IMG/VR virus record: IMGVR_UViG_3300021318_000003
Coordinates: 1-27,495 of that record
DNA: 27,495 bases
Reading direction: 5' to 3' (one strand)
From: a virus
Taxonomy: Duplodnaviria; Heunggongvirae; Uroviricota; Caudoviricetes
Part shown: positions 3,212 to 27,069 of the stretch, piece after piece
Layout of the letters: every line of letters begins with the position of its first letter
Numbering within the stretch: the stretch's first letter is position 1
Notes under the pieces: model-generated
Databases searched by the model: none
What the model was told of the DNA's origin: nothing
What the model saw: only the letters and a program-made list of their open reading frames with translations
Program-made: the position numbers and the translations under genes

Positions 3212-4003
3212 GTGTTCAAAAGTTATGAATTTACATTTGACGGGATTTCCAGCGAGATGTACGGGCTGCACATGTTCGATCTCGGAGATAAGAAGCAAAG
3301 TCCCGTGAGCTTCGGCAACAAGGCGAGCATCATCGAAACGCGGAGCAACACGCGGGTAACGCCGATCCATTATGGCGTGAACTACAACGCTTCTCCGCTG
3401 GAGTTTACGCTGGTGTTCGGCACATACGACACCAAAATGCTCGACCGCTATGAGATGCAGGAGGTGTCGCTGTGGCTGACGGGACACCGCGATTACAAGT
3501 GGCTGACCATCGTACAGCCCGACTTGGAGCACTGCATGTTTCGGTGTATCGTTACCAAGCTCACGCCGATCCATGTGGCGTGGTCGCCGGTGGCGTTTGA
3601 GGCGACGGTGCGGTGTGACTGCCCGTATGCCTACGGCTATCCATTTTCCTATACCTACCGCGTGAACGGGGAAACGCGCATCAACTTCCGCAACGAAGGT
3701 TCGTGCCGCGAGTATCTGCGCCCAAAGCTCGTGTTTACACCGTCGTCTGGTGGTGGGGCGCTTTCCATCGTCAATGAGAGTGATGACGGGCGGGAGTTCC
3801 GTCTGAGCGGCCTTCCGAACAGCGTGAGCGACGTGACAATCGACAATCAGAACGGCATTATTCGCGGCGCGGAGGCGCACAACTACTACGCGGGCTTCAA
3901 CATGAATTTCTTTCGCGCGGTGCAGGGCGACAATCTGCTCGCCGTGACGGGAAGCGGGACGCTGGAGATTTCCGGACGCTTCCTCTACAACGTGGCAGGG
4001 TAA
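3212..4003 (+). CDS. Distal tail protein (Dit)-like
   Basis: 263 aa, GTG start after GGAG; position right after TMP; 'FTFDGISSEMYGL', 'FEATVRCDCPYAY' and C-terminal 'GDNLLAVTG' match the siphovirus Dit pattern. Confidence 0.8.
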   Translation: MFKSYEFTFDGISSEMYGLHMFDLGDKKQSPVSFGNKASIIETRSNTRVTPIHYGVNYNASPLEFTLVFGTYDTKMLDRYEMQEVSLWLTGHRDYKWLTIVQPDLEHCMFRCIVTKLTPIHVAWSPVAFEATVRCDCPYAYGYPFSYTYRVNGETRINFRNEGSCREYLRPKLVFTPSSGGGALSIVNESDDGREFRLSGLPNSVSDVTIDNQNGIIRGAEAHNYYAGFNMNFFRAVQGDNLLAVTGSGTLEISGRFLYNVAG

Positions 4004-8764: not shown

Positions 8765-9154
8765 ATGACAAGCTGCGGCTGCAATCCACACTCGCTGCCG
8801 ACAATCGAGTTTGTTGGTGGAGAGACGCAGGAGCTTGTGTTCAACGTATACTTCCACTCGAAGGACAAGCCGTTCGGCATGGCGGGCGCGACCGCAAATT
8901 TCGCGATTGTGAGCAGCCTCAACAAGACGGGCGCGCCGATTCTGTCCAAGCCGATGACGGCTGGTTACGACGAACACGGGACAGTGCTTAACGTGCTGCG
9001 GGTAACAATCGCGCCGAGCGAGTCCGTCAATTTGAGTGGTAAGTACATCTATCAGATCACGCTCCGCGACATGAGCGGAGAGACGGAGATCCCCAAACAG
9101 GGGGTTTTGTTTATCAGCAACAACATCAATAAGAGTGCGATCGCCTCGTCGTAA
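8765..9154 (+). CDS. BppU N-terminal-like baseplate upper domain protein
   Basis: 129 aa; 'IEFVGGETQELVFNVY...VTIAPSESVNLSGKYIYQITLRD' resembles the BppU-type Ig-like attachment domain. Confidence 0.55.
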   Translation: MTSCGCNPHSLPTIEFVGGETQELVFNVYFHSKDKPFGMAGATANFAIVSSLNKTGAPILSKPMTAGYDEHGTVLNVLRVTIAPSESVNLSGKYIYQITLRDMSGETEIPKQGVLFISNNINKSAIASS

Positions 9155-9202
9155 GACGGGGCTTTTTCGCGCCAAAAAGTAAGCATAAGGAGGCAAAATG
9201 GC

Positions 9203-9610
9203 ATGAACACTACACGTTTTTTGGACATCGTTGCCGGTAACGTGTTTGGCACGAAGACCAATCCGGCGATCCCGACGAAGTATTACATCGGGCTTTCCAC
9301 GACGGCTCCGACCATCAACGGCACGAACGTGACCGAGCCGAACGCGGGCGCTGGCTATGCGCGCGTTGAGCTGACGAGCCTGAGCCAGCCGAGCGGCGGC
9401 GTCGTGACGAACGAGCAGGCGATCAACTTCAACGAATCCACCGCGTCGTGGGGTACGATCACGCATTTCGTTATCTTCGACACGGATACGGTCGGCGGTG
9501 GCAACCTTTTGATGTACGGCGCGCTTTCTACGCCGAGAAGCGTTGAGGCGGCGACGATTATGACCATCAAGGAAGGCTATCTGAACCTGAGCGCGCAGAA
9601 CCCGACGTAA
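9203..9610 (+). CDS. Conserved phage virion/tail structural protein
   Basis: 135 aa, AAGGAGG RBS; 'YYIGLSTTAP...GYARVEL...WGTITHFVIFD...GNLLMYGAL' motif seen in phage tail modules. Confidence 0.7.
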   Translation: MNTTRFLDIVAGNVFGTKTNPAIPTKYYIGLSTTAPTINGTNVTEPNAGAGYARVELTSLSQPSGGVVTNEQAINFNESTASWGTITHFVIFDTDTVGGGNLLMYGALSTPRSVEAATIMTIKEGYLNLSAQNPT

Positions 9611-10872: not shown

Positions 10873-11253
10873 ATGGCAGACCAGAGCTTTTTCCCCAACA
10901 ATGGCTCCGGCGGCGGTGGTGGCAGCGGCACGACCAACTACAACGACCTCACCAACCGCCCCGTGACCAACCTCGCTGGCAGCGGCATCGTCATTTCCGG
11001 TCTCTCCACCGGCGTCTACAACATCGACGGCACATGGAAGATGACCGCAGACGACGCGGAGCGCACGACCGAGAAGGACGACCTCTTCTATGTGAAGAAC
11101 GACGCATCCGGCAGCCACCTCACTTGGGTTACGGCCGGCAAGATCTATACGTTCTCCGTCGTTGCGGGCGGAACCGCAGCGGACATCGAGGAGGGCGAGC
11201 TTGCATCCACCGATGACATTACCGACGCGCTCGTCGGCAACTTCGGCGACTAA
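10873..11253 (+). CDS. Hypothetical fibre-associated protein with N-terminal FP-poly-Gly motif
   Basis: 126 aa, GGAGGTGA RBS; starts MADQSFFPNNGSGGGGGSG then 'TTNYNDLTNRP', a motif common in tail fibres. Confidence 0.65.
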   Translation: MADQSFFPNNGSGGGGGSGTTNYNDLTNRPVTNLAGSGIVISGLSTGVYNIDGTWKMTADDAERTTEKDDLFYVKNDASGSHLTWVTAGKIYTFSVVAGGTAADIEEGELASTDDITDALVGNFGD

Positions 11254-11258
11254 GAGCG

Positions 11259-11523
11259 CTTCGTTTGAAACCTGCTTCGCTGGGCTTTCAAACGAGGGGA
11301 TTTCGCTGCGCTGCGCGCACGCCTGACGGCGCACCTATCACCGTTGCGCCAGCCGCTTCCCGCTTCCCTTTGGTCGCAGCAAGCGGGGCGCTGCCTCGAA
11401 ACAGCCTCGCTTGCACCGCCACTGGCGGCGCTTCGGCTGTTTCCACTTCGCGCAAAGAGAAATTTCCGCCGCGCATGTCGTCGGAAATTTCAAATCAAGT
11501 TCATTTCCGCCTGCTGGCGGAAA
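11259..11523. repeat. Intergenic cluster of stem-loops (REP-like)
   Basis: TCGTTTGAAA 11261-11270 / TTTCAAACGA 11286-11295; GAAACAGCC 11398-11406 / GGCTGTTTC 11435-11443; AAATTTCCG 11460-11468 / CGGAAATTT 11482-11490; TTTCCGCC 11504-11511 / GGCGGAAA 11516-11523. Confidence 0.7.
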
Positions 11524-11552
11524 AATAAAATATGAGAAAGGATGATACTACT

Positions 11553-12647
11553 ATGGCTAAACTCGTTTACAAAGGTTTGAAGGCGAACCTGCCCGTCTCC
11601 CGCAACGCCGACTCTTTCTATCTCTGCACCGATACCCGCGAGCTGTACTTCGGCATGAACCTCTATACGGAGGCTGTGCGGCTGTTTACCTCCGCAGACC
11701 TCGGCACCGCGCGCGACCTGCCCGCGAGTGACGCGCTGACCGCGAAGGGCGTCGTCTACTTCGACCTTGCCGACAACTCCGGCTGGGTGCGCAACTTCGA
11801 CGTGACGCTCGGCGATCCCGGCGACTGGGTTTGCGTCATCGCCTCCACTGAGAGCATGACCTATCAGATCCGCAAGCTCTCCACGCCGACGAGCGGCGCG
11901 TTCGCGACCTACGCGCTCTTCCAGGGCGGCGTTCAGGTTCCGACGACCGACCCGACCAAGAACTGCGTCATCGACATTCCGAAGGACTTCCTGCTCAAGG
12001 ACGCCAAGCTCGACGTCGTGACGGCTGCTGACAAGGCGGCGGGCGGTAAGTTCGAGAATGACGATCGCTTCGCCGAGGGCGACCAGTACATCGACTTCAC
12101 CGTCAACACTCGCACGCTTATCAAGGCGACCGGCACCTACGTCGCCGGCACGATCTACTATCAGGACGAGGCCGGTACGCTGCTCGTCGACACCACCGGC
12201 TTTGAGGAGGGCGTGACCGACGTTTCCGCGTACTACGTCGTGGACGGCAGCACCGAGAGCCACATCTATCTGAACGTCAAGGATCTCGGCATCGCGCTCA
12301 AGGCCGGCGTCGGCATTGAGATCGTCGGCACGGACAACGACGAAATCTCCATCAAGATCGACTCTGCGCACGCCAACGGTCTTGCCGTTGATACGGACGG
12401 ACTCAAGCTCGGCATGGCGGCGGCTGCGACCACGCAGTATGTCGCAGCGACGGGCGATGTGCAGTCCGGCGTGACCTACTACTCCGACGATGTTGGCACG
12501 GTTGCCGACCCGCAGCCCAACGTCGGCGACCCCGCTACCGGCTACTATGTCGCCGAGGCGGTCGCCGCGAAGAACGGCGCGATGAGCGGCGTGGACAAGG
12601 AGCACCTTGACATCGCCTACGACGCTATCCTCGTCGGCAGCTTCTAA
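11553..12647 (+). CDS. Putative tail fibre/side-fibre protein
   Basis: 364 aa from ATG 11553 (GAAAGGA RBS; track start 11532); N-terminal 'FYLCTDTRELYFG' fibre-type motif; two internal repeats (TGTYVAGTIYYQDEAGT..YYV / TGDVQSGVTYYSDDVGT..YYV). Confidence 0.6.
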   Translation: MAKLVYKGLKANLPVSRNADSFYLCTDTRELYFGMNLYTEAVRLFTSADLGTARDLPASDALTAKGVVYFDLADNSGWVRNFDVTLGDPGDWVCVIASTESMTYQIRKLSTPTSGAFATYALFQGGVQVPTTDPTKNCVIDIPKDFLLKDAKLDVVTAADKAAGGKFENDDRFAEGDQYIDFTVNTRTLIKATGTYVAGTIYYQDEAGTLLVDTTGFEEGVTDVSAYYVVDGSTESHIYLNVKDLGIALKAGVGIEIVGTDNDEISIKIDSAHANGLAVDTDGLKLGMAAAATTQYVAATGDVQSGVTYYSDDVGTVADPQPNVGDPATGYYVAEAVAAKNGAMSGVDKEHLDIAYDAILVGSF

Positions 12648-12668
12648 GCCGCCGCGAGCGTAATCCAA

Positions 12669-12705
12669 AGGGGAGCTGTGAAATCTCATAGCTCCCCTAT
12701 TTTTT
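12669..12705 (+). terminator. Rho-independent terminator
   Basis: GGGGAGCTGTGA-aatc-TCATAGCTCCCC (12 bp, one G-U) followed by TATTTTTT. Confidence 0.75.
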
Positions 12706-12735
12706 AACCATTCAAAGAAAAGGGGGTAGAAGACT

Positions 12736-15156
12736 ATGCCGAATACTTTTGCGCATTTCGCTACGGCGACCAAAAGCAAGGCAAAAAACTACACTACTGT
12801 CCCGATCGACAACGGTTTGTTCCTCATTCTGACCGATACGAAGCAGCTTTGCTACGACTTCGGCGGTACGCGGCTTTTCCTTGGCGACATCGAGGAAATC
12901 GAAACCGAAGAGGCGCGTGAGGCCATCGTCTCGCCGCTCGACAAGTTCTATTTTGTCCGCGAGGATACGAAGCTCTGGCGCTATATCGGCGGCGAGTGGC
13001 ACTTCTGGGCGGATGGTGAGAGCGCAAGCGAGCACATCGAGCAGACGATTCTTTCCACGAACGGCGTCCACGGTTTGAAGTACAACGCTGCGACCGGCGT
13101 TCTCTCGTATCTTGACGCGAACGATGACTGGCAGACGCTTCTTGTGGGCGATTCCTCCGTTGTGCTCGCGACGCTGCTTTCATCCGGTTGGACTGGCAAC
13201 GAGCAGACCGTGACGGTTAGCGGCGTCGACTCCGCTACCAACGGTACGGCGGGACTTACGCAGGACATTACGACGGCGGCATACGAGGCGGCGTGCGACG
13301 CGGCTTTGCGCGTTTCCGCTCAGGGTACGGACAGTGTTACCATCACCGCGATGGGCGACGTGCCGAGCGTCGATATTCCAATCGCCGTTATCATCTTCCC
13401 GCAAGGAAGCGCCGCTGGTGGCGGCGGGAGCTGGGCGAGTGCCGCCGACCTTGGCGACGTCTCTCAGTTGACGACGACCAACAAATCCAGCGCGGTCGAG
13501 GCAATCAATGAGCTGGACAACGGCAAGGTCGATAAGGTCAGCGGCAAGGGGCTTTCCACCGAGGATTTCACAACGGCTGAGAAAAACAAGCTCGGCGACA
13601 TCGAGGCGGAGGCGCAGAAGAACGTGCAGGCGGATTGGGAGGAGGACGACGATGCGGCGGATTCCTACATCCAGAACAAGCCGACGCTCGGCACAGCGGC
13701 GGCTAAAAACTCCACCGACCATGTTCAACCGAACAGCCATGACCTTGTGGAGAGTATCGCGGTCTATTCTGCCATCAACAACGCCCTGTCGAGCATCTAC
13801 ACGCCGCGTGGCGACCTTGCATGCGCCAGCCTGACTTCCGCCTTGCTTATCGAAGCGAATGTCGGCAACGTGTATCAGATGACCGACAGCGGCACGACAA
13901 CCGCGCTGTTTTTGCAGGGTGCCGGACAGACCATCAACATCGGCGACAACGTGGGTATCATCAAGGCGGGAGCAAACACCTATCTGTTCAATCTGATGGG
14001 AAACGCCTTTGACCTGCACGACTATCAGACGAAAGCCCTTGCAACGGCTATTGCGGGTGCGTCCACGGTTGAGGGTGCTTTGAGTGCGCTTGATACCGTG
14101 AAATTGAGCGGTATGGCAACTATTCTGACATCCGCAGACGATATTGACGCGCTTAATACGGTCGGCGTTTATGCGTGGGCGAGCAATTCTTTACCCGCAA
14201 ACGTACCCGATAACATCGGTTACTGCATCATGTTCCATGTTCGCGGCGCGGCAGGCGGCAATAATGAACAGCAATACATTCTCAAAGGGTCTGGCGGAAA
14301 CCTTATTATGAGGTCATTGGCGACCGTTTCTCCGCGTGTGTGGGGCGAATGGCACGATTTGACCCCTGTTGATTCCATAACAGACGGCAATATGCGGCCG
14401 GCCACCTCGAACGCGGTGTACAACGCGATCCAAGCTCTGCCGAGCACGGCTGTTCTCGGCGCGGCGCGTATGCACGCGAACATCTATCGCGGTAAGTACC
14501 TCGGCTCGTCCGTTACGGCGGAGCAGTACGCGGCTATCAGTGCGGGTACGTTTGACGACCTCTACATCGGCGACTACTGGACGATCGGCGGCGTAAACTG
14601 GCGCATTGTGGATTTCGACTACTGGTACGGCAAGGGCGATACCGCCTGCTCGACGCACCACGTCGTCATCGTCCCCGACACGAACCTCTACACCGCGAAG
14701 ATGAACGACTCCAACGTCACGACGGGCGGTTACATCGGCTCGCAGATGTATACGGCAAACCTCGCAAACGCCAAGACCACCATCAACAGCGCGTTTGGTT
14801 CGGCGCATATCCTCTCGAAGCGCGAGCTGTTCACGAATACGGTCTCGAACGGCATCCCGACCGCAGGCGCGTGGGTGGATTCGACCGTTGACCTGATGAA
14901 CGAGATCAACGTCTACGGCTCGTATATCTTTACGCCCGCCAACAATGGCACGACCATTCCGTACATCTACACTATCGACACGACGCAGTTTGCGCTGTTC
15001 CGGCTCGACCCGACGCGCATCTGCAACCGCTCGGCCTGGTGGTTGCGCGACGTTGTTTCTGCGGCGTGTTTCGCTTTTGTCGACGGCCGCGGCTATGCGG
15101 GCTGCCGCGGCGCTTCCGGCGCTCTTGGCGTGCGTCCGGCTTTCGCTATCAAGTAA
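12736..15156 (+). CDS. DGR target 1: tail-fibre-type receptor-binding protein with C-terminal variable (predicted C-type-lectin-fold) domain
   Basis: 806 aa; fibre motifs LGDVSQLTTTNKSSAVEAINEL, KVDKVSGKGLSTEDFT, NVQADW..YIQNKP; knob-like segment; C-terminal 'DDLYIGDYWTIGG...WWLRD...GVRPAF' carrying VR1. Confidence 0.9.
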   Translation: MPNTFAHFATATKSKAKNYTTVPIDNGLFLILTDTKQLCYDFGGTRLFLGDIEEIETEEAREAIVSPLDKFYFVREDTKLWRYIGGEWHFWADGESASEHIEQTILSTNGVHGLKYNAATGVLSYLDANDDWQTLLVGDSSVVLATLLSSGWTGNEQTVTVSGVDSATNGTAGLTQDITTAAYEAACDAALRVSAQGTDSVTITAMGDVPSVDIPIAVIIFPQGSAAGGGGSWASAADLGDVSQLTTTNKSSAVEAINELDNGKVDKVSGKGLSTEDFTTAEKNKLGDIEAEAQKNVQADWEEDDDAADSYIQNKPTLGTAAAKNSTDHVQPNSHDLVESIAVYSAINNALSSIYTPRGDLACASLTSALLIEANVGNVYQMTDSGTTTALFLQGAGQTINIGDNVGIIKAGANTYLFNLMGNAFDLHDYQTKALATAIAGASTVEGALSALDTVKLSGMATILTSADDIDALNTVGVYAWASNSLPANVPDNIGYCIMFHVRGAAGGNNEQQYILKGSGGNLIMRSLATVSPRVWGEWHDLTPVDSITDGNMRPATSNAVYNAIQALPSTAVLGAARMHANIYRGKYLGSSVTAEQYAAISAGTFDDLYIGDYWTIGGVNWRIVDFDYWYGKGDTACSTHHVVIVPDTNLYTAKMNDSNVTTGGYIGSQMYTANLANAKTTINSAFGSAHILSKRELFTNTVSNGIPTAGAWVDSTVDLMNEINVYGSYIFTPANNGTTIPYIYTIDTTQFALFRLDPTRICNRSAWWLRDVVSAACFAFVDGRGYAGCRGASGALGVRPAFAIK
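15026..15147 (+). repeat. DGR variable repeat VR1
   Basis: 122-bp ungapped match to 15933-16054; 22 mismatches, each opposite a TR adenine. Confidence 0.97.
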
Positions 15157-15164
15157 TCTCCAAT

Positions 15165-15185
15165 CCCCGCCCCTTGTGGGCGGGG
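15165..15185 (+). other. DGR target-recognition hairpin 1
   Basis: CCCCGCCC-cttgt-GGGCGGGG, 8 nt after the target stop; a GC hairpin 3' of VR is a known DGR cis element. Confidence 0.8.
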
Positions 15186-15330
15186 TCGATTACTTGTTTT
15201 TATCGCCGTTTCGCTCGCCCCTGACGGGGCAACCGCGAAACATGGCTGAGTCCCAGCATCCGAATAGCTGGGACTGCCGCAGCGCACAACACCAGATGGG
15301 CGGGGATTGCCGCAGAAGGGAGGCGAGGCT

Positions 15331-15900
15331 GTGTCAAACGTGCCATTGAGCCGGAGGAAGGAATCCAGATTTGAGGCGCAGCACCACTTTTACAAGCTGC
15401 GCGACAGCGTGACGGAGCTGATGTTCTACAACTTCGGGTTTTCCGAGGAGAAGTACGCGAAGAAGATCGAGCGGTATCGCTCCATGCACGCGGCGAACGA
15501 CAACGTGGATGAGCTGACCGAGCGCTGGGAGCAGAAAAGCCGCGCGATGACCCGATGGTTCATCGACAAGGAGAAGGACGCGGTGCTCGCCATTCTTCGC
15601 AATATCGAATCCGAGTTTACGTTTGGCAATTCGATCTATCCGTCCGAGACGCCCGCCAAGGAGGACGAGTTCCGCGAGCGGCGGAAGCACATCGACGCCG
15701 CAATCGCGCAATGCTATGTGCTCAAGCAGGAGATCCACTACATTATCCGCACGCTGCCCGTCGACCTGAACCGATATGCGAGATTCGCGGATATGATCGA
15801 CGCGCAGGTGGCGCTCTACAAGGGCGTGCGGACGGCGGACAACCGGCTTTTGAAGCCGAAGGGCAGGAAGAACACACAGAAAAACGGTGAAAACGGCTGA
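15331..15900 (+). CDS. avd: DGR accessory variability determinant (Avd-like) 1
   Basis: 189 aa from GTG 15331 (GGAGG upstream); N-terminus SNVPLSRRKESRFE, helical, sits between target and TR. Confidence 0.8.
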   Translation: MSNVPLSRRKESRFEAQHHFYKLRDSVTELMFYNFGFSEEKYAKKIERYRSMHAANDNVDELTERWEQKSRAMTRWFIDKEKDAVLAILRNIESEFTFGNSIYPSETPAKEDEFRERRKHIDAAIAQCYVLKQEIHYIIRTLPVDLNRYARFADMIDAQVALYKGVRTADNRLLKPKGRKNTQKNGENG

Positions 15901-15932
15901 AATAAGCCGCTTCATAGGGCATGGCTTGAATG

Positions 15933-16054
15933 ACCGCTCGAACTGGTGGTTGCGCGACGTTGTTTCTGCGGCGAATTTCGCTAATGTCAACAGCAACGGC
16001 AATGCGAACTACAACGGCGCTTCCAACGCTAATGGCGTGCGTCCGGATTTCGAT
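15933..16054 (+). ncRNA. DGR template repeat TR1
   Basis: Non-coding, between avd and RT; 10 AAC/AAT codons in the VR frame (RSNWWLRDVVSAANFANVNSNGNANYNGASNANGVRPDF); 26 adenines. Confidence 0.95.
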
Positions 16055-16275
16055 GGCGTCAGATAAGACCTCGTGAGATAGGCAAGACGCCCGATGCGAA
16101 AGGAAGCCATGTCCTTCTTCCGCGCTTTCCGCGCGGGGTAAATGCAAGCGCCTGACGGCGGAGCCGCGCCGTGCCGGTTTGGCTTATGGGAACGGATGCG
16201 TCTGTCTCCCTGCACGAGTCTTAACCCCGCGAGGGGAGCACGGCAATATTCCACAGGAGGCGGAGTGTTAAGGAA

Positions 16276-17433
16276 ATGTCAACGATTTGCGACATGAACG
16301 TGCTGTACGACGCCTTCCGCGCGTCGATGCGGAGCAGCCCGTGGAAGGAGGAGCCGCAGCGGTTCGAGACGGATTTCCTCTCGGAAATCAACCGGCTGCG
16401 GCACGAGCTGGCGGAGAAGACCTATCAGACCTCGCAGGGTTCGGACTTCCTCTTGAACGAGCGCGGGAAAACGCGGCACGTCCACGGCGGCAGGATGCGC
16501 GACCGCGTGGTGCGCCACGCCCTTTGCGACGCGGTGCTCACGCCGAAGCTCGCGCCGTACATCATCCACAACAACTTCGCCTCGCAGACAGGCAAGGGTG
16601 TGGACGCGGCGAGGAAGGCGTTTGAACGCGATCTGCACAACTTCTACCTTGAGTACGGTGACAACAACGGATGGGTCTGTTTTATGGACTTCTCCAAGTA
16701 TTACGACAACATCCGGCACGACAAGGTGCTTGAAAAGATCGCTCCACATCTCGAAGAGGACGAGATGTGGCTTCTGGAGGAGATTTTGCGCGGGTTTCGC
16801 GTGGACGTTTCGTATCTGACGGACGAGCAGTATGCGGCGGCGCTGGACGAAAAATTCGATTCCGTGCGGTATCTTGCGGAGGTTTCCGAGGATATGAAAA
16901 CGGGCGGAAAATTTCTTCCGAAATCGCTGGACATCGGGGATCAGGTGTCGCAGAACATCGGCGTGTTCTTCCCGACCGAGATCGACAACTTCGTTACGGT
17001 CGTGAGGGGCTTCCGGCGCTACGGGCGGTATATGGACGATTCGTACCTCATCCATCGCGAGCGCGGGTATCTGGAGGATACGGTCGGGATGGTCGCTGAG
17101 ATCGCAAGGCGCGACGGGCTTTTTGTCAACGAGCGAAAAACGCACGTCACGCGGCTGGGCGACTGCTACACCTTCCTCAAAGTCCGCTATCGGCTGGAGG
17201 AGCGCGGACGTGTGCAGAAGCGCATCTGTCCCGAAGCCGTGACACGGGAGAGGCGGCGGCTGCGCGCGCACGCGAGGCTCGTGCGGGATGGTCGGATGCC
17301 GCGCGAGCAGTCCGATCAGGCGTTCCGCTCGTGGATGGGGCGATACGCCAAGATGATGTCGAGGAAGCAGCGTGCGGGTATCACGACGCTGTATCGGGAG
17401 CTTTTCGGCGCGGATGCTCCACGGTGGAAATAA
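16276..17433 (+). CDS. DGR reverse transcriptase 1
   Basis: 385 aa; RDRVVRHAL, MDFSKYYDNI, IGDQVSQ (DGR-type GxxxSQ) and YGRYMDD motifs. Confidence 0.95.
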   Translation: MSTICDMNVLYDAFRASMRSSPWKEEPQRFETDFLSEINRLRHELAEKTYQTSQGSDFLLNERGKTRHVHGGRMRDRVVRHALCDAVLTPKLAPYIIHNNFASQTGKGVDAARKAFERDLHNFYLEYGDNNGWVCFMDFSKYYDNIRHDKVLEKIAPHLEEDEMWLLEEILRGFRVDVSYLTDEQYAAALDEKFDSVRYLAEVSEDMKTGGKFLPKSLDIGDQVSQNIGVFFPTEIDNFVTVVRGFRRYGRYMDDSYLIHRERGYLEDTVGMVAEIARRDGLFVNERKTHVTRLGDCYTFLKVRYRLEERGRVQKRICPEAVTRERRRLRAHARLVRDGRMPREQSDQAFRSWMGRYAKMMSRKQRAGITTLYRELFGADAPRWK

Positions 17434-17460
17434 TTTTTGAAAAGAAGAAGGTGGTGAAGC

Positions 17461-17868
17461 ATGAGTCAAACCACAAACTACGGGCTTTATACCGAGGACG
17501 ACGCCACGACCAAGTTCTTGACGTGGCGGCAAAAAATGAACGGAACGGCGGAAACGAGCAATATGCAGATCATCGACCGCGTGCTCGGCGAAAAGGCGGA
17601 TTCCAGCACGCAGGTCACGGGCGTTCTGCGCGCGAACGCTTGGAGCGGCGTGGATGCTCCGTTTACGCAGACTGTCTCCGTTACAGGTCTCAAGGTCGGT
17701 CAGGCTGGCGACATCAACGTCAGCCAGAGCGCGACGTTTGAGCAGAGGCAGGTCGCGCGGGAAGCAATGCTCGCCGTTACGGGACAGGCGGCGGGGCAGC
17801 TTACGATCTCGGCGGACGGTGAGATGCCCGATCTGGACATTCCGTTTGTCGTGACGCTCCTGGGCTGA
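17461..17868 (+). CDS. Putative fibre adaptor protein; C-terminal domain homologous to an internal domain of target 1
   Basis: 135 aa, GAAGGTGGTG RBS; QTVSVTGL...LTISADGEMPDLDIPFVV aligns with target-1 QTVTVSGV...VTITAMGDVPSVDIPIAV. Confidence 0.75.
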   Translation: MSQTTNYGLYTEDDATTKFLTWRQKMNGTAETSNMQIIDRVLGEKADSSTQVTGVLRANAWSGVDAPFTQTVSVTGLKVGQAGDINVSQSATFEQRQVAREAMLAVTGQAAGQLTISADGEMPDLDIPFVVTLLG

Positions 17869-18001
17869 CGGCAGTACGGGCGGCACATTTCCGGAAGTGC
17901 CGCGCGGCGGCGCAGCCCTGAAAAACCAAAATGCTCCAAACGAGGCGTTCCAAAATCGACCTCGTTTTCCAAACCGTAAGAAAAAAGGAGGCACAGGCAA
18001 T

Positions 18002-20260
18002 ATGATTACTTCTAATTTCCCTTCCGGCGCTGGCGGCGGCGGAGGCGGCGTAACGCTTGCACCGTGCTCCGGCATCACGACGCTGGTGAGCCACGGCAAG
18101 GTATATGTCAAGTGGACTGACCCAGCAGACGTGGTGGTCGGCGGCACGACGCTTGCCGAGTGGAAAGGCACCATCCTCGTCCGCAAGGCGGGCAGTGCTC
18201 CCGTGAGCCGCCGCGATGGTACGGTCGTGGTGGACTCCAAGACGCGCAGCGCCTATCAGAACACCTATTTTACCGATTCCGGCCTGACGGACGGCACAAC
18301 CTATTACTACAAGCTGTTCCCGTATACGACCACGGGGACTTACACCGACGATCCCGCCGACGAGTTCAACGCGATGCCGGAGGCGATCAAGGTCGGCAAT
18401 GTGAGTTCCATGAGCGCGGTCGCGGCCGGCAACGGCAAGCTCGCGATCGAGTGGACTGACCCTGCGGCGACGGTCGTGCAGGACGGCGTGACGCTCGCAA
18501 CGTGGGGCAGCACGAAGGTCGTCGTCAAGGCCGGTTCCTATGCGACCGATCCGGACGACCCCGACGCGGCGTGGAGCTTTACCAGCAACACGCGCAACGC
18601 TTACGCTTCGACGCCGCTGACGGCAACGGGGCTGACCAACGGCACGACGTACTATGTGACGTTCTTCCCGACAAGCACGGAGGGCGCGGTCAACACCAAC
18701 ACCGCGAACCGCACGAGCGGCACGGCTGACAGACTCACCATCGCGACGGTGCCGTCCCAGAGCGGGACGCTGACCTATGACGGCACCTCGCAGACGCCGA
18801 TGTGGGCGGATGAGGACGCCACGAAGATGACCAAGACCGAGATCGGGCAGACGAACGCCGGCACCTACAACACCACGAGCTTTACGCCGAAGGACGACTA
18901 TAAGTGGTCTGACGGCACGACCTCCGCCAAGACGCCGGATTGGACGATCGGTAAAGTGACGCCGACCGTTACCGCGCCGACCAAGGCAAGCGACACGACA
19001 TACGACGGCAGCGCGCACGCGCTTCTCGCCACGGACGGTTCCACCAACTACGGCACGCTGCAGTACAAGGTCAATTCCGGATCGTGGGCGGCTACCAGTC
19101 CGTCCGAGACGGCAGCCGGCGATTACGCCGTGAGCTATCGCGTTGTGGGCGACAGCAATGTCAACGACGTCGCGGCGGTGAGTGTCGGAACCGTGACGAT
19201 CGCGAAGAAGACTGGTACATTGACGGTGAGCAAGAGCACGATCACGCTCAACGCGAGCAAGCTCACGGATACGTTTACGATCGGAGGCGAGCACGATGGT
19301 ACGGTCAGCGTGCAGTCCAGCGACACGACCGTCGCGACGGTTTCCAAGAGCGGCAACACCGTGACGGTGACGAGTCAGAATGGCAAAAGCGGAACGGTTA
19401 CTGTGACGTGCAGCGTTACCGGCTGCACGAACTACACCACGCCGAGCGATAAGACCGTGACGGTCAACGCGCAGTTCCTTCCGGTGGCGTACACATCCGC
19501 CCAGGCAGGCGTTACTTATACCAACGGTCTGTCCGGTTTGACCGATGCGCAGATCAGCGAGATCGCAAACGGCATCTCCAACAACTCCGCCATCAACAGC
19601 AATACGAGCGAGGTGTGGGTGAGTGTTTATAACCGCCACATCTCTATCGGCGATACTATCAGCTACACGCTTTCCGGTACGAGCTACTCATTCCGCGTGA
19701 TGGGCTTCAACCACTACGCTCTGACGAGCGCGACCGCATACGGTTCGGCTACCACTACGGGCAAGGCCGGCATCCTCATGCAGATGGTGGACTGCTTCAA
19801 CACCACGCAGAAGATGAAAGCGAGCATGGCGAGTACAGACGGCTGGCACAACTCCGACCTTCGGACGTGGATGAGCGGTACGATGCTCGGCTACTTCCCG
19901 TCGAGCGCGCAGAACGCCATCAAGCAGGTCAACGTTTCTACGGCGAAGGACGTTTCCACGGCGACGCTCAACACGACGGCGGATAAGCTCTTCCTGCCTG
20001 CCGAGGTGGAGGTCTTCGGATCTGCCACTTACGCCAAGGGCGGAACGAACGAGGGTACGCGCTATGCGTGGTACAAGGCCAATGATACGGCTGCCAATCG
20101 CGTGAAGAAGGTCAATGGTTCCGCGAACTACTGGTGGGAGCGTTCCCCGACTACCTGGGACGGCAGCACCTCGTATTTCTGCATTGTCTACAGCGGCGGC
20201 GACGCCGCCATTTACTACGCGAGTGGCGCCAATGGCGTCGCGCCCTGCTTCAATTTTTAA
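18002..20260 (+). CDS. DGR target 2: multi-Ig/FN3-like adhesin with C-terminal variable (predicted C-type-lectin-fold) domain
   Basis: 752 aa from ATG 18002 (AAGGAGG at 17985-17991; track start 17897); two FN3-like repeats (WTDP...GLT[DN]GTTYY), TYDG repeats, Big-2-like 'SSDTTVATV', C-terminal WWERSP...GVAPCF carrying VR2. Confidence 0.9.
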   Translation: MITSNFPSGAGGGGGGVTLAPCSGITTLVSHGKVYVKWTDPADVVVGGTTLAEWKGTILVRKAGSAPVSRRDGTVVVDSKTRSAYQNTYFTDSGLTDGTTYYYKLFPYTTTGTYTDDPADEFNAMPEAIKVGNVSSMSAVAAGNGKLAIEWTDPAATVVQDGVTLATWGSTKVVVKAGSYATDPDDPDAAWSFTSNTRNAYASTPLTATGLTNGTTYYVTFFPTSTEGAVNTNTANRTSGTADRLTIATVPSQSGTLTYDGTSQTPMWADEDATKMTKTEIGQTNAGTYNTTSFTPKDDYKWSDGTTSAKTPDWTIGKVTPTVTAPTKASDTTYDGSAHALLATDGSTNYGTLQYKVNSGSWAATSPSETAAGDYAVSYRVVGDSNVNDVAAVSVGTVTIAKKTGTLTVSKSTITLNASKLTDTFTIGGEHDGTVSVQSSDTTVATVSKSGNTVTVTSQNGKSGTVTVTCSVTGCTNYTTPSDKTVTVNAQFLPVAYTSAQAGVTYTNGLSGLTDAQISEIANGISNNSAINSNTSEVWVSVYNRHISIGDTISYTLSGTSYSFRVMGFNHYALTSATAYGSATTTGKAGILMQMVDCFNTTQKMKASMASTDGWHNSDLRTWMSGTMLGYFPSSAQNAIKQVNVSTAKDVSTATLNTTADKLFLPAEVEVFGSATYAKGGTNEGTRYAWYKANDTAANRVKKVNGSANYWWERSPTTWDGSTSYFCIVYSGGDAAIYYASGANGVAPCFNF
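20116..20251 (+). repeat. DGR variable repeat VR2
   Basis: 136-bp ungapped match to 20803-20938; 19 mismatches, each opposite a TR adenine. Confidence 0.97.
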
Positions 20261-20277
20261 TCTATTATCTAAGTCCA

Positions 20278-20301
20278 TCCCGCCCCTCCTATGGGGCGGG
20301 A
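20278..20301 (+). other. DGR target-recognition hairpin 2
   Basis: TCCCGCCCC-tcctat-GGGGCGGGA (9 bp), 17 nt after the target stop. Confidence 0.8.
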
Positions 20302-20320
20302 GAGGGCGTAGGAGAGATCT

Positions 20321-20749
20321 ATGTCAGTTATCAAGTCCAAAAGAAACGAAAGCTCTATGCAGTTTATCCAAACCGCAAAAGAGCTTGAGGCGTTTGCGCT
20401 TTCGGTTTGCATCAAAGCGCCGAAACGCTATGCGCCCTATCTGACGGAGAAGATTTTCGCGCTTGCTTCAACGGTGCATGACGAGGTTCGCGCCGCGAAC
20501 AATATCATTCCGCTGAACAAGCACGAGGCTCAGATGCGCCGCGACCACCTGATCGCCGCGAACTGCGCCCTCCAAAATCTTGATCCAAAGCTGCAGCTTC
20601 TCTACGACGCGATCTTGCAGAATCCCGAAAAGTTCCCGTGGGTAGATCACGCGATGGAACAGTTCGGCAAGTATATCGCCGAGGAAGCGAAGCTGATCGC
20701 AAAGGTCAAACAGGCAGACAGAGCGCGCTACGCAAATCTGCCCGATTGA
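20321..20749 (+). CDS. avd: DGR accessory variability determinant (Avd-like) 2
   Basis: 142 aa; MSVIKSKRNES...PKRY...ANNI...RRDHL pattern of Avd four-helix bundles; between target and TR. Confidence 0.85.
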   Translation: MSVIKSKRNESSMQFIQTAKELEAFALSVCIKAPKRYAPYLTEKIFALASTVHDEVRAANNIIPLNKHEAQMRRDHLIAANCALQNLDPKLQLLYDAILQNPEKFPWVDHAMEQFGKYIAEEAKLIAKVKQADRARYANLPD

Positions 20750-20802
20750 TACCATTCAGGACAAGCTCTGAATCGTTACGATGTGGTCTGACAGCCTGCC
20801 CG

Positions 20803-20938
20803 TGGTTCCGCGAACTACTGGTGGGAGCGTTCCCCGAATAACTGGAACGGCAGCAACTCGAATTTCTGCAATGTCAACAGCAACGGCAACACCAACAATA
20901 ACAACGCGAGTAACGCCAATGGCGTCGCGCCCTGATTC
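20803..20938 (+). ncRNA. DGR template repeat TR2
   Basis: Non-coding; 16 AAC/AAT codons in the VR frame (GSANYWWERSPNNWNGSNSNFCNVNSNGNTNNNNASNANGVAP*F); 39 adenines. Confidence 0.95.
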
Positions 20939-21234
20939 CATAAGCAAACAGTCAAGAAAAGTAACCGAATACGGCGAATGAGCACTTTTATGGAAGGAGA
21001 GCTTGATCCTTGCCGCAAGGCTAAACATGCCTCTCGATGCCTCTGACCGGACGCTGCCGATCGCGTAAGGAACGCGCGCTCGGCACGCCACGCGGTAAAA
21101 ATGCGTGGTGTGCTTGCATGGCGGAGGTAAGTGCGTATATCCGTTTCATGGTCACTGAGGCTACGCAGCTATCGCGCGCACATTTTTCCAGCTGTACGGG
21201 AGGCAAAAGAACCCAGAAAAGGGAGATCGAATAC

Positions 21235-22389
21235 ATGACAAGTGAAGAAAGACGCGAAGCGCGTTACCGCAGGCGTAAGGCTAAACGGGATGAGCAACGC
21301 TTCGCGCGGAGCAAAGCGTGCGGAACGATGGACGAAGTGTTCTCGTTCCGTCATCTTTATCTGTCCGGCAAGAAATCGGCGAAAAACGTCCGATGGAAGG
21401 CATCTACGCAAAAGTATCTGAGCAACCTGATCGTCAACTCGGCGCGTTCCAGACAAGCGATCCTGGACGGCACGTTCCGCCACGGGAAATTCTACTGCTT
21501 CGATCTGGTGGAGCGAGGGAAGCTGCGGCATATCCGAAGCGTCCACATTACGGAGCGCGTCGTGCAGAAGTGCCTTTGCGACTACTGCATCGTTCCGTCG
21601 TTTTCCGGCGCGTTCATCTATGACAATACCGCGAGCCTCCAAAATCGAGGTATGGACTTCGCGCTGCGGCGCTTTGAGCGGCATCTGAAGGAGTATTACC
21701 GCAAGCACGGGCGTGACGGATGGGTACTGTTCTACGATTTCCACGACTACTTCAACCTCGCCGCGCACGAGCCGCTTTTCGCTGAGTCCAAGAGGCGGCT
21801 CTACTACGATGACGTTCGCAGATTATCCGATGGATTTATCAGCGATTTCCATGATTGCGGGCTGGGGCTTGGCAGTCAGGTGTCGCAGACGAACGCGCTT
21901 TTGCTACCGAGCGCGCTTGACCACTTCTGTAAGGAGCAGCTTGGCATACGCGGATATGGCAGGTATATGGACGACGGGCATTTGATCCACGAAAGCCGCG
22001 AGTATCTGGAATATTGCTATCGGATGCTTACGGAAAAGGCAGCAGAATCCAAGATTGAATTGAATCACAAGAAAACGAAGATCGTCCCGCTTCGGCGGGG
22101 CGTTTTCTTTCTCAAGACGAAGTTCACGCTTGACGAGAACGGGCGCGTCTACATCAGGATGCGCCGCAGGGCGACGATCATCATGCGGCGCAAGCTGCGG
22201 AAGTTCAAAGGCCGGATCGCTGACGGGCTGATGACGTATGACGATCTCAGATGCGCGTATAACAGCTATCTCGGACACATGAAGCGTGGGGACAGCTTCC
22301 GGATCATGGAACAGACCAACCAGTATTTCAAAACTTTGTTCGGGTTCTATCCGAACAGGAAAGGATGGGAGACAGTATGTACGAAGTGA
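21235..22389 (+). CDS. DGR reverse transcriptase 2
   Basis: 384 aa from ATG 21235 (GGGAG RBS; track start 21037); N-terminus MTSEERREARYRRRK; ERVVQKCL, YDFHDYF, LGSQVSQ and YGRYMDD motifs. Confidence 0.95.
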   Translation: MTSEERREARYRRRKAKRDEQRFARSKACGTMDEVFSFRHLYLSGKKSAKNVRWKASTQKYLSNLIVNSARSRQAILDGTFRHGKFYCFDLVERGKLRHIRSVHITERVVQKCLCDYCIVPSFSGAFIYDNTASLQNRGMDFALRRFERHLKEYYRKHGRDGWVLFYDFHDYFNLAAHEPLFAESKRRLYYDDVRRLSDGFISDFHDCGLGLGSQVSQTNALLLPSALDHFCKEQLGIRGYGRYMDDGHLIHESREYLEYCYRMLTEKAAESKIELNHKKTKIVPLRRGVFFLKTKFTLDENGRVYIRMRRRATIIMRRKLRKFKGRIADGLMTYDDLRCAYNSYLGHMKRGDSFRIMEQTNQYFKTLFGFYPNRKGWETVCTK

Positions 22390-22706
22390 AGAAGAATGGC
22401 GAGACCATCGCTCTTGTTGACAAGCCCTCGTGGATCAAGCGCCTTGTCAACGGGGATATGGGACTCACCACGAAGGAGCACGCCACGGGTATCGCCATTT
22501 CTCTTGGTGTGTTCTCTCTCGGCAAGAGCCGCGACATGGAGGATCTTGACGAAGTGACACTCAACGAGTACGACGCCGGCAAGACTATCGGCGAGCACGG
22601 CGAGAGCATCGCGGAACTGGAAGCCGCCGTGTGTGAATCCGACGAGGCAAATGAGGCATGGAAGGCTGAGATCGAGGCCGCTCTGTGCGAAATGGATATG
22701 GGTTAA
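22377..22706 (+). CDS. Hypothetical protein, possible fibre assembly chaperone
   Basis: 109 aa (alternative start 22365), overlaps the RT2 stop; acidic coiled-coil C-terminus. Chaperone role is inferred from position. Confidence 0.6.
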   Translation: MYEVKKNGETIALVDKPSWIKRLVNGDMGLTTKEHATGIAISLGVFSLGKSRDMEDLDEVTLNEYDAGKTIGEHGESIAELEAAVCESDEANEAWKAEIEAALCEMDMG

Positions 22707-22727
22707 AAAGAAAGAGAGGGTATGATT

Positions 22728-22916
22728 ATGGCTATTTCTGCTATGGCACGCATTTGGGCGAACCGTCTTGAGGCGGGCAATTTCACTTGGGACGACGTTC
22801 CGCAGAGCCGCAAGGCCGACGTCAAGACCGTTCTGCGCGGTGACGTTGAGACTGGCAAGAACGGCATGACCGCCGAGCGCTACGAGGAGATCGTCGGTGA
22901 GCCGTATGAGGCGTAA
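22728..22916 (+). CDS. Small XkdX/CD1375-like protein
   Basis: 62 aa (alternative start 22722); 'ARIWANRLEAGNFTWDDVPQSRKADVKTVL' resembles small post-fibre phage proteins. Confidence 0.55.
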   Translation: MAISAMARIWANRLEAGNFTWDDVPQSRKADVKTVLRGDVETGKNGMTAERYEEIVGEPYEA

Positions 22917-22919
22917 CGC

Positions 22920-23078
22920 ATGAGCAATCTGCAAATTATCGAAGAGCTGAGCAAGATCTGCGAGATGCAGAACCGCATCATCAAGGAACAGGCAAAGGCT
23001 CTCGAACAGCTTGGCGCAACTGTTCTGGAGGACGAACGCGCCGAGGTCAACGAGCGGTTTTCCAGACTGCTCGATTAA
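22920..23078 (+). CDS. Hypothetical 52-aa protein (MSNLQIIEELSKICEMQNRII...)
   Basis: Read by hand (below track cut-off); GAGG upstream, 3 nt after the previous stop. Confidence 0.65.
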   Translation: MSNLQIIEELSKICEMQNRIIKEQAKALEQLGATVLEDERAEVNERFSRLLD

Positions 23079-23146
23079 GGATAAGCGACTGGCGCGGGAG
23101 AAATCCCGCGCCTCGCGCGTTCCAAAAACGGGGAGGAGGCGAGACT

Positions 23147-23971
23147 ATGAACAAAAAGCCCGTTTACTATATGCAGACCGATGGAAGATGGAGCGGTAAG
23201 CGCTATCCCTGCATCGGCGGCACTATGAGCATCGGCGGAGGCGGCTGCGGCGAAACCAGCGCCGCCATGCTGATCGCCACACTGATCGGGCGCGATGTGT
23301 TTCCGACTGAGACGATGGAATGGGCGTGCGCGAACAACTACGTCGTAGCGGAGCAGGGTACGAGTTATCAGCCGCGCGATTACTTCGTAGAGCAGTTCAA
23401 GCAGTATGGGCTTAAATGCGAACGGCTCACAAACGAGGTTTGCATGAACCGCAACAGCCCCGTGCGTGAGAAAGTCATTCGTAAGCTCGAAGAAGGCAAC
23501 TACATCATCGCGTTGATGAAACCGAAATCCGTTGATCCTTTCATTCGGGGGACGTGGACTGGCGGCGGTCACTTCATTGTGGTGTGGTGGGCGGACAACA
23601 AGATCCGGATCAACGATCCGGCAAGCACGTCCGACCGGCGCACCAATGGCGATCCCGACACGTTTTTCTCGGAGGCTAAGTATTTTTGGGTGATCGACGC
23701 GAAATCTCACAACAAAGGAGATGAGTTGGATATGACGAAGAAGGAATTTTTGGCAAGTCTGACGCCGGAGGAAAAGGCGGAGATCGTGAACGGCGCGCAG
23801 GAGTATTTTGCCACGCAGGATCTTCCGAAATGGGCTGAGGCGGAGATGGAGGAGGCAAAAAGGCTCGGCATTACGGACGGCACGCGCCCGATGCAGCTCA
23901 TCCCGCGCTATCAGGCGGCAATTATGGCGAAGCGCGCCATGATGGATGGCAAGAAGCTCAATCTGGGCTGA
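23147..23971 (+). CDS. Endolysin, C39-like (papain-fold) peptidase with C-terminal SLH-like region
   Basis: 274 aa; QTDGRW, GCG (Cys), GHF (His), NDP (Asp); C-terminal 'LPKWAEAEMEEAKRLGITDGTRPMQLIPRYQAAIM'; GGAGGAGG RBS; lysis-module position. Confidence 0.75.
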   Translation: MNKKPVYYMQTDGRWSGKRYPCIGGTMSIGGGGCGETSAAMLIATLIGRDVFPTETMEWACANNYVVAEQGTSYQPRDYFVEQFKQYGLKCERLTNEVCMNRNSPVREKVIRKLEEGNYIIALMKPKSVDPFIRGTWTGGGHFIVVWWADNKIRINDPASTSDRRTNGDPDTFFSEAKYFWVIDAKSHNKGDELDMTKKEFLASLTPEEKAEIVNGAQEYFATQDLPKWAEAEMEEAKRLGITDGTRPMQLIPRYQAAIMAKRAMMDGKKLNLG

Positions 23972-25874: not shown

Positions 25875-25929
25875 CCATCTAACACCTTCGCGCTCCCATC
25901 TAACACTTATCTAACACTTTGTCTAACGC
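25875..25929 (+). repeat. Integrase arm-type sites, right (P') arm
   Basis: CCATCTAACAC 25875-25885 and 25896-25906, TATCTAACAC 25908-25917, TGTCTAACGC 25920-25929; the last three overlap the int 3' end. Confidence 0.7.
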
Positions 25930-27069
25930 ATCAGCCATTTCCGTCTTGGAAGATTTTACTGCGTGACCGTAGAATTTGAGTGTTGTATTGGGGCTTTCGT
26001 GACCAAGCCATTCTGCAACTTGCACGACATTAAATCCCATATCCAGAAGATTTGTTGCCGCGCTGTGCCGAAGATCGTGCAGCCGGACTTTTGGAAGTGT
26101 GCTTTTGCTTACGATTGAATGGAATGTTTTGGTGAGATAGTTTGGCGTGATGATTGCTCCGTTCGGCCATGTGCAAATGAAGTCGTTTTGGATGTAGTAT
26201 GCGCCCATGAGCTTCTTTCGTTCTGCTTGAAGTTCCTGCTGATGAGTCAACAGATCGTAAATGCTGTCTGACATTGGAAGCGTTCGCAAACTGCTGTCCG
26301 TTTTCGTTTCGTCCTCATAGTTGCCGCCAATACCTTGCTGCAAGGTGTTTTCCACGGTGATTGTTCGACGGTCGAAGTCTATTGCGTTCCACTTCAGACC
26401 GAGAACTTCGCTGCGCCTAAATCCGTAGAACGCACACAATCGTACAGGTAATTCCACTACTGAGCCTACGAATAGGAACATGAGTTCGTCGATTTCTCTT
26501 GTGCTGAGAAATTCTGGGCGGAATTTTCTGACTCTACCTTCCGGCTTTGGCATGACGACAGTTGAAGCTGGATTTGTTTTGATCAGCTTGTCGTGTACGG
26601 CATCTGCGAGTGCTTTGCTGATGTTTTGCTGATGGTGCTTGACGGTGGTGGGCGACAGAGCTTCGCCGGATCTGAGCTTGCTGCCCTTTTTCAGCTTGGA
26701 GCTGTAGTACCGCTCAAGGTCTTCCGTCGTGAGGTTTTGAAGGGTGATTTTCTTCGCTTCAAAATATGGAATGATGTGGTTTTCCATATTCGCGGCGTAG
26801 TTCCGATATGTGTTTGGTCTGACCTTCTTTTCAATTTTTTTCAACCACTTCCGGAAATAGTCTGCGACGGTGATCGTGGTGTACGGCACGACAGAGCAGT
26901 CATATTTTGCTATCTGGTCGCTCAGGAACGCCTCGGCAGCCTTTTTGTTTCCTCTGATCGGCAGATTGGTGCAGATCCACTTCTGCCTTCGTTTCCCGTC
27001 TTCGTCATAGAGATTGATTACGGCGTGGTATTTACTGTTTCTGATTTGCAAGTTGCCTGTGACCGCCAT
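25900..27069 (-). CDS. int: Tyrosine integrase
   Basis: 389 aa; catalytic R (GFRRSEV), K (TKT), HDLRH, LGHES, FYGH; N-terminal arm-binding-type domain; GAAAGGAGG RBS. Confidence 0.95.
   Translation of the reverse strand: MAVTGNLQIRNSKYHAVINLYDEDGKRRQKWICTNLPIRGNKKAAEAFLSDQIAKYDCSVVPYTTITVADYFRKWLKKIEKKVRPNTYRNYAANMENHIIPYFEAKKITLQNLTTEDLERYYSSKLKKGSKLRSGEALSPTTVKHHQQNISKALADAVHDKLIKTNPASTVVMPKPEGRVRKFRPEFLSTREIDELMFLFVGSVVELPVRLCAFYGFRRSEVLGLKWNAIDFDRRTITVENTLQQGIGGNYEDETKTDSSLRTLPMSDSIYDLLTHQQELQAERKKLMGAYYIQNDFICTWPNGAIITPNYLTKTFHSIVSKSTLPKVRLHDLRHSAATNLLDMGFNVVQVAEWLGHESPNTTLKFYGHAVKSSKTEMADALDKVLDKC

Follow-up and report, generated by a model that had tools for sequence, protein, structure and literature searches.

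A stretch of phage DNA was found to carry two diversity-generating retroelements (DGRs), which lie in tandem within the tail-fibre module. The phage comes from the gut and is a large, temperate one of siphovirus type. The DNA that was analysed, referred to here as the window, is 27,495 nt long and makes up the first 27.5 kb of the 91.5-kb IMG/VR record IMGVR_UViG_3300021318_000003. We hold with high confidence that these are two separate, complete and active DGRs, that they belong to different lineages brought together by modular recombination, and that the tandem is kept by selection. Each cassette contains, in this order, a target gene ending in a variable repeat (VR), a GC-rich hairpin, an avd gene, a template repeat (TR), a spacer and the gene of a reverse transcriptase (RT), and this order is present twice, back to back, with only a 135-aa gene between the cassettes, as a preliminary description of the sequence had stated. 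The features of the locus, numbered by window position, are listed below; IMH stands for initiation of mutagenic homing.

12736..15156, + strand: target gene 1 (806 aa), with an adaptor-like N-terminus, a poly-Gly linker, a fibre-type region and a C-terminal DUF6273-like domain that contains VR1.
15026..15147, + strand: VR1, 122 nt, forming the final 41 codons of target 1, with a GC-rich block and then an IMH-like divergent tail in its 3' part.
15150..15196, + strand: GC-rich hairpin after VR1, with a 9-bp outer stem that encloses an 8-bp G/C stem (15165-15185).
15331..15900, + strand: Avd1 (189 aa), predicted to be an enlarged Avd-fold accessory protein.
15933..16054, + strand: TR1, 122 nt, with 26 adenines and 13 A-containing codons, 10 of them AAY.
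16055..16275, + strand: spacer RNA of cassette 1, a predicted structured RNA conserved in RT1-type DGRs.
16276..17433, + strand: RT1 (385 aa), RVT_1, phrog_1423, with IGDQVSQ and YMDD motifs.
17461..17868, + strand: the 135-aa gene (g135), between the cassettes, a paralogue of the target 1 adaptor domain.
17897..20260, + strand: target gene 2 (787 aa from a GTG, or 752 aa from the ATG at 18002), with poly-Gly, repeated beta-domains and a C-terminal DUF6273 that contains VR2.
20116..20251, + strand: VR2, 136 nt, at the 3' end of target 2.
20278..20301, + strand: GC-rich hairpin after VR2, with a 9-bp stem and a 6-nt loop (z -3.1).
20321..20749, + strand: Avd2 (142 aa), predicted Avd-fold four-helix bundle, matching phrog_30516 only.
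20803..20938, + strand: TR2, 136 nt, with 39 adenines and 22 A-containing codons, 16 of them AAY.
20947..21224, + strand: spacer RNA of cassette 2, matching Rfam RT-2 RNA (RF03077) over the full model length (125.3 bits, where the gathering score is 40; E 1.6e-29).
21235..22389, + strand: RT2 (384 aa with the ATG at 21235 as its likely start), RVT_1, phrog_1423, with LGSQVSQ and YMDD motifs; the open frame extends back to 21037.

Alignment of the repeats gave 22 mismatches between TR1 and VR1 and 19 between TR2 and VR2, every one of them at a TR adenine (22/22 and 19/19), and no indels in either pair. Given the base content of the templates (26/122 and 39/136 A), the chance of obtaining mismatches at adenines only is 1.7e-15 for TR1/VR1 and 4.9e-11 for TR2/VR2. 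Counting returned the 26 and 39 template adenines given in the preliminary description, and its statement that all 41 mismatches fall at them stands. Three of the 41 (TR1 offsets 115 and 121, and TR2 offset 133) hold the same C in every VR allele seen and more likely mark an IMH/IMH*-type boundary than mutagenesis. Adenine substitution in the AAY-rich codons of the templates never yields a stop codon. The theoretical repertoire amounts to 10^13.6 proteins for VR1 and 10^22.4 for VR2, and the multiplicative diversity that had been proposed for the pair is a matter of arithmetic (10^13.6 x 10^22.4 protein variants).

In each cassette, VR and TR have a 13-14-nt GC-rich block in common, beyond which the two diverge. 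The same succession of a GC-rich block and a divergence between IMH and IMH* is found in BPP-1. Folded as DNA, the hairpin after VR1 has an energy of -15.6 kcal/mol (z -5.7), and 0/200 shuffled sequences did as well. The GC block, the IMH-like end and the hairpin are putative homing signals in both cassettes; the GC-rich, IMH-like ends of one cassette are unlike those of the other. As a separate observation, slightly changed copies of a ~47-nt stretch between the VR1 hairpin and avd1 (15202-15248) were seen on several unrelated contigs from the same metagenomes, and this stretch had raised depth and loose ends on both sides in 4/4 runs. It may be a short dispersed element, a conserved RNA or a terminator.

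The VRs occupy the last 41-45 codons of both targets, within DUF6273. This domain was detected at residues 632-786 of target 2 (E 2.3e-20; phrog_37900), whose neighbours in the atlas are DUF6273 clusters, and at residues 750-806 of target 1, there with an E-value of 1e-4 that falls slightly below the Pfam cut-off (phrog_18608). The two targets are similar only over their C-terminal ~200 residues, at 25% identity, and that part corresponds to DUF6273. The DUF6273 region of target 2 had no match when its sequence was compared with PDB. DUF6273 has already been reported as a DGR target domain in Faecalibacterium phages (PMC11792537). On other contigs, gene callers give target 2 as 752 aa. The product of the 135-aa gene is 31% identical to residues 140-221 of target 1, and the gene is kept in two relatives of the phage, L094 (76%) and L097 (60%), in both immediately 5' of a gene resembling target 2; family and profile searches with it found no significant family. 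We suggest that this product is probably an adaptor for target 2, and target 1 resembles a fusion of g135 with a fibre of the target 2 type. From their position in the tail module, the fibre-type motifs and DUF6273, we infer that both targets are virion adhesins, located on the virion and acting in receptor binding.

Both RTs fit the DGR signature (I/L)GxxxSQ together with the YxDD catalytic motif. The best PDB match was the Bordetella RT, bRT (8ub7_A), for the RT1 family profile (E 2.4e-14) as well as for RT2 (E 2e-11), in each case above group II intron RTs. RT1 and RT2 are 28% identical to each other, and in a maximum-likelihood tree of 64 RTs their families formed separate clades, with support values of 99/99 and 100/99 and a stem branch of ~2.7 substitutions per site for each; the RT of a third DGR in this genome stands apart. 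The phylogeny thus places RT1 and RT2 in different, strongly supported clades. The start of RT2 had earlier been set so as to give a frame of 450 aa, which overlaps the RT-2 non-coding RNA and is probably over-extended. Because that Rfam RNA fills 20947-21224, the likely start moves to 21235, where an AGGGAG ribosome-binding site precedes the ATG, and gene callers on other contigs likewise give an RT2 of 384 aa.

Both accessory proteins are predicted to be Avd-type bundles. Their AlphaFold models are helical bundles, with predicted local distance difference test (pLDDT) scores of 85.6 for Avd1 and 79.4 for Avd2. When the Avd2 model was searched with Foldseek, the top match was the Avd of the Bordetella DGR ribonucleoprotein (8ub7_B; template-modelling score 0.74 by target), followed by 2gsc, 2rld and 4dwl. 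Foldseek returned only unspecific helical proteins for the Avd1 model. An exhaustive VIA-align comparison of this model with 48,161 PDB chains placed Avd/PF05635-type bundles in all of the top four positions, with Z-scores of 14.1 (2gsc), 13.4 (2rld), 12.9 (8ub7_B) and 12.7 (4dwl_A), values that have to be read against the high background Z of helical bundles. Avd1, whose family comprises 392 proteins, had no PHROG match. No BLAST similarity was detected between Avd1 and Avd2, their family profiles matched with a marginal probability of only 47%, and they fall into different length classes; the two families are alike in their consensus N-termini and in a central N-I-Y-P motif.

The spacers of the two cassettes also belong to different families. 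In cassette 2, the 278-nt match to the RT-2 RNA fills exactly the gap between TR2 and RT2. RT-2 is one of the 'RT' motifs that adjoin RT genes, and among these only RT-10 has been tied to a DGR, that of BPP-1 (PMC5737381). Because the match lies exactly between the TR of a DGR and its RT, we assign RT-2 to the DGR spacer RNAs; for this orphan Rfam motif the assignment is new. The spacer of cassette 1 had no Rfam match at E<=10. RNAalifold, applied to 22 RT1-type loci, predicted 25 pairs, 20 of them with compensatory changes (a raw count, without a shuffled background), and the RT1-type TR-RT spacer (16055-16275 and its counterpart in L094-L155) holds conserved motifs that include GCGAAAGGAA and GGGCUUAAC. 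It is a candidate for a new, uncurated family of DGR spacer RNAs. In Bordetella, the spacer RNA is the part recognised by the RT-Avd complex.

Relatives of the phage bear on how the two cassettes came together. The diverged relative L094 has the same tandem layout, with A-biased TR/VR pairs in both cassettes. In comparison with L094, the ratio of non-synonymous to synonymous substitution rates (dN/dS) was 0.18 for RT1, 0.28 for Avd1, 0.20 for g135, 0.066 for RT2 and 0.10 for Avd2, while dS was 0.9-1.3 in cassette 1 and 0.11 in cassette 2, a tenfold contrast. These values indicate that both machines are under purifying selection and that the locus is a mosaic. In L097, a 112-kb IMG/VR relative with a similar tail module, genes of 590 aa and 139 aa stand in place of target 1, Avd1 and RT1; homologues of g135 and target 2 come next, and the contig ends inside the latter. 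Separate acquisition of cassette 1 fits what is seen in this one relative. The RT2 family is found in ~45-kb phages, and genome collections hold relatives of it in Oscillospiraceae (Dysosmobacter and others). Members of the RT1 family come with an Avd type of their own and are spread over varied phages; one lies in a head module and another in a myovirus-type baseplate module. What is seen in L094 and L097 suggests that a DGR cassette and the tip domain of its target travel together, as a module.

Since the RT clades lie apart, the Avds and the spacer families differ, and dS differs tenfold, the cassettes did not arise by recent duplication, in agreement with what had been concluded from the window sequence, and the results support their origin as different DGR lineages joined by modular recombination. 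The accompanying claim that the RTs, Avds and TRs are all very divergent was borne out for the first two but not for the templates, since TR1 and TR2 have a 79-nt core that is ~76% identical and includes a 23-nt identical run. Such likeness is as expected for templates of one domain family.

The similarity of the templates, together with the fact that both targets end in the same domain family, would also suit a locus in which one RT-Avd machine serves both templates and the other cassette is a decaying passenger. RT loss does occur in this phage, as the RT of its third DGR has an internal deletion and the targets of that DGR still look diversified. However, both RT frames of the tandem are intact, retain their catalytic motifs and are identical in 10/10 contigs (compared below), and both are under purifying selection relative to L094 (dN/dS 0.18 and, rounded, 0.07). 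The cassettes also differ in their Avd type, their conserved spacer RNA family and their GC-rich IMH-like ends, and no VR allele was found with non-A changes towards the TR of the other cassette. We consider it very unlikely that a single machine operates both cassettes.

To describe natural variation, we used contigs that encode the exact RT1 protein, which was found on 18, and compared ten of these, taken from assemblies of JGI, ENA and Logan. All contigs of sufficient length have both cassettes, in the same order, and identities were 99.1-99.8%. Across 11589-23500 (~11.9 kb), all differences among the contigs fall in VR1 or VR2. Three VR1 alleles were present in 10 contigs, with 23/26 TR-A positions changed plus one non-A change, and four VR2 alleles in 8 contigs, with 33/39 TR-A positions changed plus one non-A change, so that 56/58 variable VR sites are TR-adenine positions. 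TR1 was invariant in 9/9 covering contigs and TR2 in 7/7. The VR alleles assort independently: L085 combines the VR1 of the window with another VR2, and L089 combines the VR2 of L085 with another VR1. The VR2 of L086 and L087 differs from that of the window at three 3'-proximal sites only, with all 16 other substitutions in common, and in L086 looks like a partial conversion, with cDNA taking over the VR's 3' part and no more. In Logan contigs of four sequencing runs, the assemblies split at VR2 into short contigs, with at least two alleles within one run; VR2 alleles had depths of 5.7 and 11.5 in run X1, and VR1 was mixed in run X5. Since the differences are confined to the VRs and lie at TR-A sites, the alleles assort independently and the same layout recurs in ten assemblies, we conclude that both DGRs are currently active, as seen from A-position variation in both VRs, and that the layout is no chimera.

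The VR differences might instead be old standing polymorphism, shuffled by recombination between strains that carry inactive DGRs. In keeping with this, only 3 and 4 alleles were seen, several contigs have alleles in common, and an ordinary recombination block does lie close by. That block, at ~11004-11588 in small genes upstream of target 1, consists of two haplotypes with 62 differences of mixed substitution types. In contrast to the VRs, it has the look of an ordinary recombination patch. For the VRs themselves, recombination within ~11.9 kb of otherwise identical sequence would need to have exchanged exactly 122 and 136 nt each time, and to have left nearly all of the variable sites at TR adenines. 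Moreover, the three-site change in the VR2 of L086 resembles a fresh partial conversion, and several VR2 alleles are present in one run. Shuffling of old variants in inactive DGRs is therefore regarded as highly improbable. Finally, although assemblies do break at the VR and TR repeats, we give practically no credence to the tandem being an assembly chimera of two phages joined at similar sequences, since ten contigs from different assemblers and samples have the same junctions, a single 37.9-kb Logan contig spans 15944-20500, and L094 has the same order.

Some points weigh against the reading of the locus as two separate, active DGRs, and should be set beside the evidence for it. Several of the ten contigs may stem from one sampling campaign, and the sequencing runs were read as Logan contigs, not as raw-read time series. 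Neither Avd1 nor Avd2 had a sequence match in Pfam (including its Avd family), NCBIfam or PDB, either singly or as profiles, and their assignment rests on predicted folds. A DGR is expected to have its VR at the 3' end of a gene for a ligand-binding protein of C-type lectin or Ig fold; the DUF6273 domains of both targets were recognised by sequence only. Given the homologous core of TR1 and TR2, there may be some cross-use of templates between the cassettes.

For two separate and active DGRs, the following course of events can be drawn by analogy with Bordetella BPP-1. Each cassette would transcribe its own TR plus spacer RNA, and its own RT-Avd complex would copy the TR with adenine-specific errors. 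With the GC-rich block, IMH-like end and hairpin as guides, the resulting cDNA would then take the place of the VR at the cognate fibre gene's 3' end. Each RT would use its own template only, and under this scheme two tips, the DUF6273 of the fused fibre (target 1) and that of the pair formed by g135 and target 2, would be diversified independently. The phage could thus diversify two fibre tips independently of each other. The locus also offers a natural experiment on specificity, asking which features of the spacer RNA, the Avd and the homing signals keep two DGRs from interfering. In prokaryotes, no natural system of targeted protein hypermutation is known apart from DGRs, which are under development as directed-evolution tools.

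The third DGR lies in the same phage record, outside the window, at the following positions.

62453-63145, minus strand: RT of the third DGR.
63355-63439: TR of the third DGR.
63874-63956 and 76906-76987: VRs of the third DGR.

A single TR goes with two A-biased VRs, which lie 13 kb from each other. The RT of this DGR, of 230 aa, has lost the middle of the palm through the internal deletion and is 30-38% identical to RT1 and RT2. A broader proposal, which we put forward tentatively and with clearly less assurance than the tandem itself, is that a temperate phage of ~125 kb keeps three mutually insulated DGRs that diversify four genes, two of the DGRs being adjacent, each with its own RT lineage and two with their own Avd type and spacer family, such that each RT-Avd would act on no template RNA or homing site but its own, despite the homology of two of the templates. 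If so, the genome would hold a natural set of orthogonal targeted-mutagenesis modules, and whole cassettes with their target tip would be exchangeable units of phage tail evolution.

The layout appears to be rare. Two RTs were found in 0/50 RT2-type IMG/VR records, 23 of which are at least 90% complete, and in 1/26 RT1-type IMG/VR records (IMGVR_UViG_3300037249_000095). Extra RVT_1 matches in several IMG/VR records were considered as second RTs and rejected, as they are split hits of one gene. A viral-contig scan with RT1 peptides gave no locus, and an alignment-based viral-contig scan for RT1-type DGRs gave 58 loci. Searches of open-access full text did not yield a single phage described as carrying two distinct RT-bearing DGRs, which does not prove absence. 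We conclude that the DGR mechanism is a known one and that each cassette is a new member of known families, whereas the arrangement is rare and new; also new are RT-2 as a DGR spacer, the uncurated spacer-RNA family, and Avd families that Pfam misses.

Other genes of the window, listed below, give the context of the two cassettes.

1-3156: tape-measure protein.
3212-4003: Dit.
4016-7594: large Tal-like protein.
9203-9610: Gp80-type fibre-associated protein.
Downstream of the two DGR cassettes: C39-like peptidase and holin-like gene.
25900-27069, minus strand: integrase.

With these genes, the window reads as a siphovirus-type late region. Since the lysis genes stand beside the integrase, which is the order of the circular or replicating form, we infer from this arrangement that the remainder of the 91.5-kb record most likely belongs to the same phage. 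The host is probably among the Oscillospiraceae-type gut Clostridia. When the whole locus was compared by megablast with 50,697 GenBank phages, no match was obtained. Two contigs (L084 and L088) represent copies of the phage that are identical apart from an IS110-family transposase (1362-2585, minus strand), which is inserted between a 129-aa gene and the Gp80-like gene, at a site corresponding to ~9154-9203 of the window, whose own copy is without it.

The closest model for each cassette is the DGR of Bordetella BPP-1, with its order of mtd-VR, avd, TR, spacer and brt. The likeness extends to A-specific TR/VR mismatches, a VR that closes a tail-fibre-type gene at its 3' end, a GC-rich block with a diverging IMH-like end followed by a hairpin, and an Avd-fold accessory protein (predicted here), and the best solved relative of both RTs is bRT. 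In contrast to the one cassette of BPP-1, two unrelated cassettes adjoin here, with a third DGR in another part of the genome. The target domain, Mtd in BPP-1, is DUF6273 here, and the Avds here are without a Pfam Avd sequence match, Avd1 being ~60 residues longer. The spacer RNA of BPP-1 is RT-10 (PMC5737381), whereas those described here are RT-2 and an uncurated family.

The Faecalibacterium phages Roos, Pioen, Lelie and CP11 (PMC11792537) resemble this phage in being temperate phages of gut Clostridia with a VR at the C-terminus of DUF6273, and some of them diversify two proteins; their DGR activity was likewise inferred from cognate genomes and reads. They differ in having one RT and one TR each, so that a second target reuses the TR (PMC11792537), whereas in the present phage an RT, an Avd, a TR and a spacer go with each target separately. 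Bacteria, too, can have more than one RT/TR system per genome: several DGRs were reported for ~10% of the complete genomes that bear DGRs (PMC5758913) and for 25% of Bacteroides isolates, with up to five (bioRxiv 10.1101/2024.11.15.621889). Those systems are scattered over chromosomes or different mobile elements, or are near-identical copies, in contrast to the adjacent DGRs of this one phage, with their deeply separated RT clades. A further case is the IMG/VR record with two RTs mentioned above (IMGVR_UViG_3300037249_000095; L166+L167), which is also a phage with two DGR RTs and has one RT1-type cassette with a target resembling target 1. Its other DGR, with one TR and two VRs, lies ~21 kb away, however, and the two are not in tandem as they are in the phage described here.

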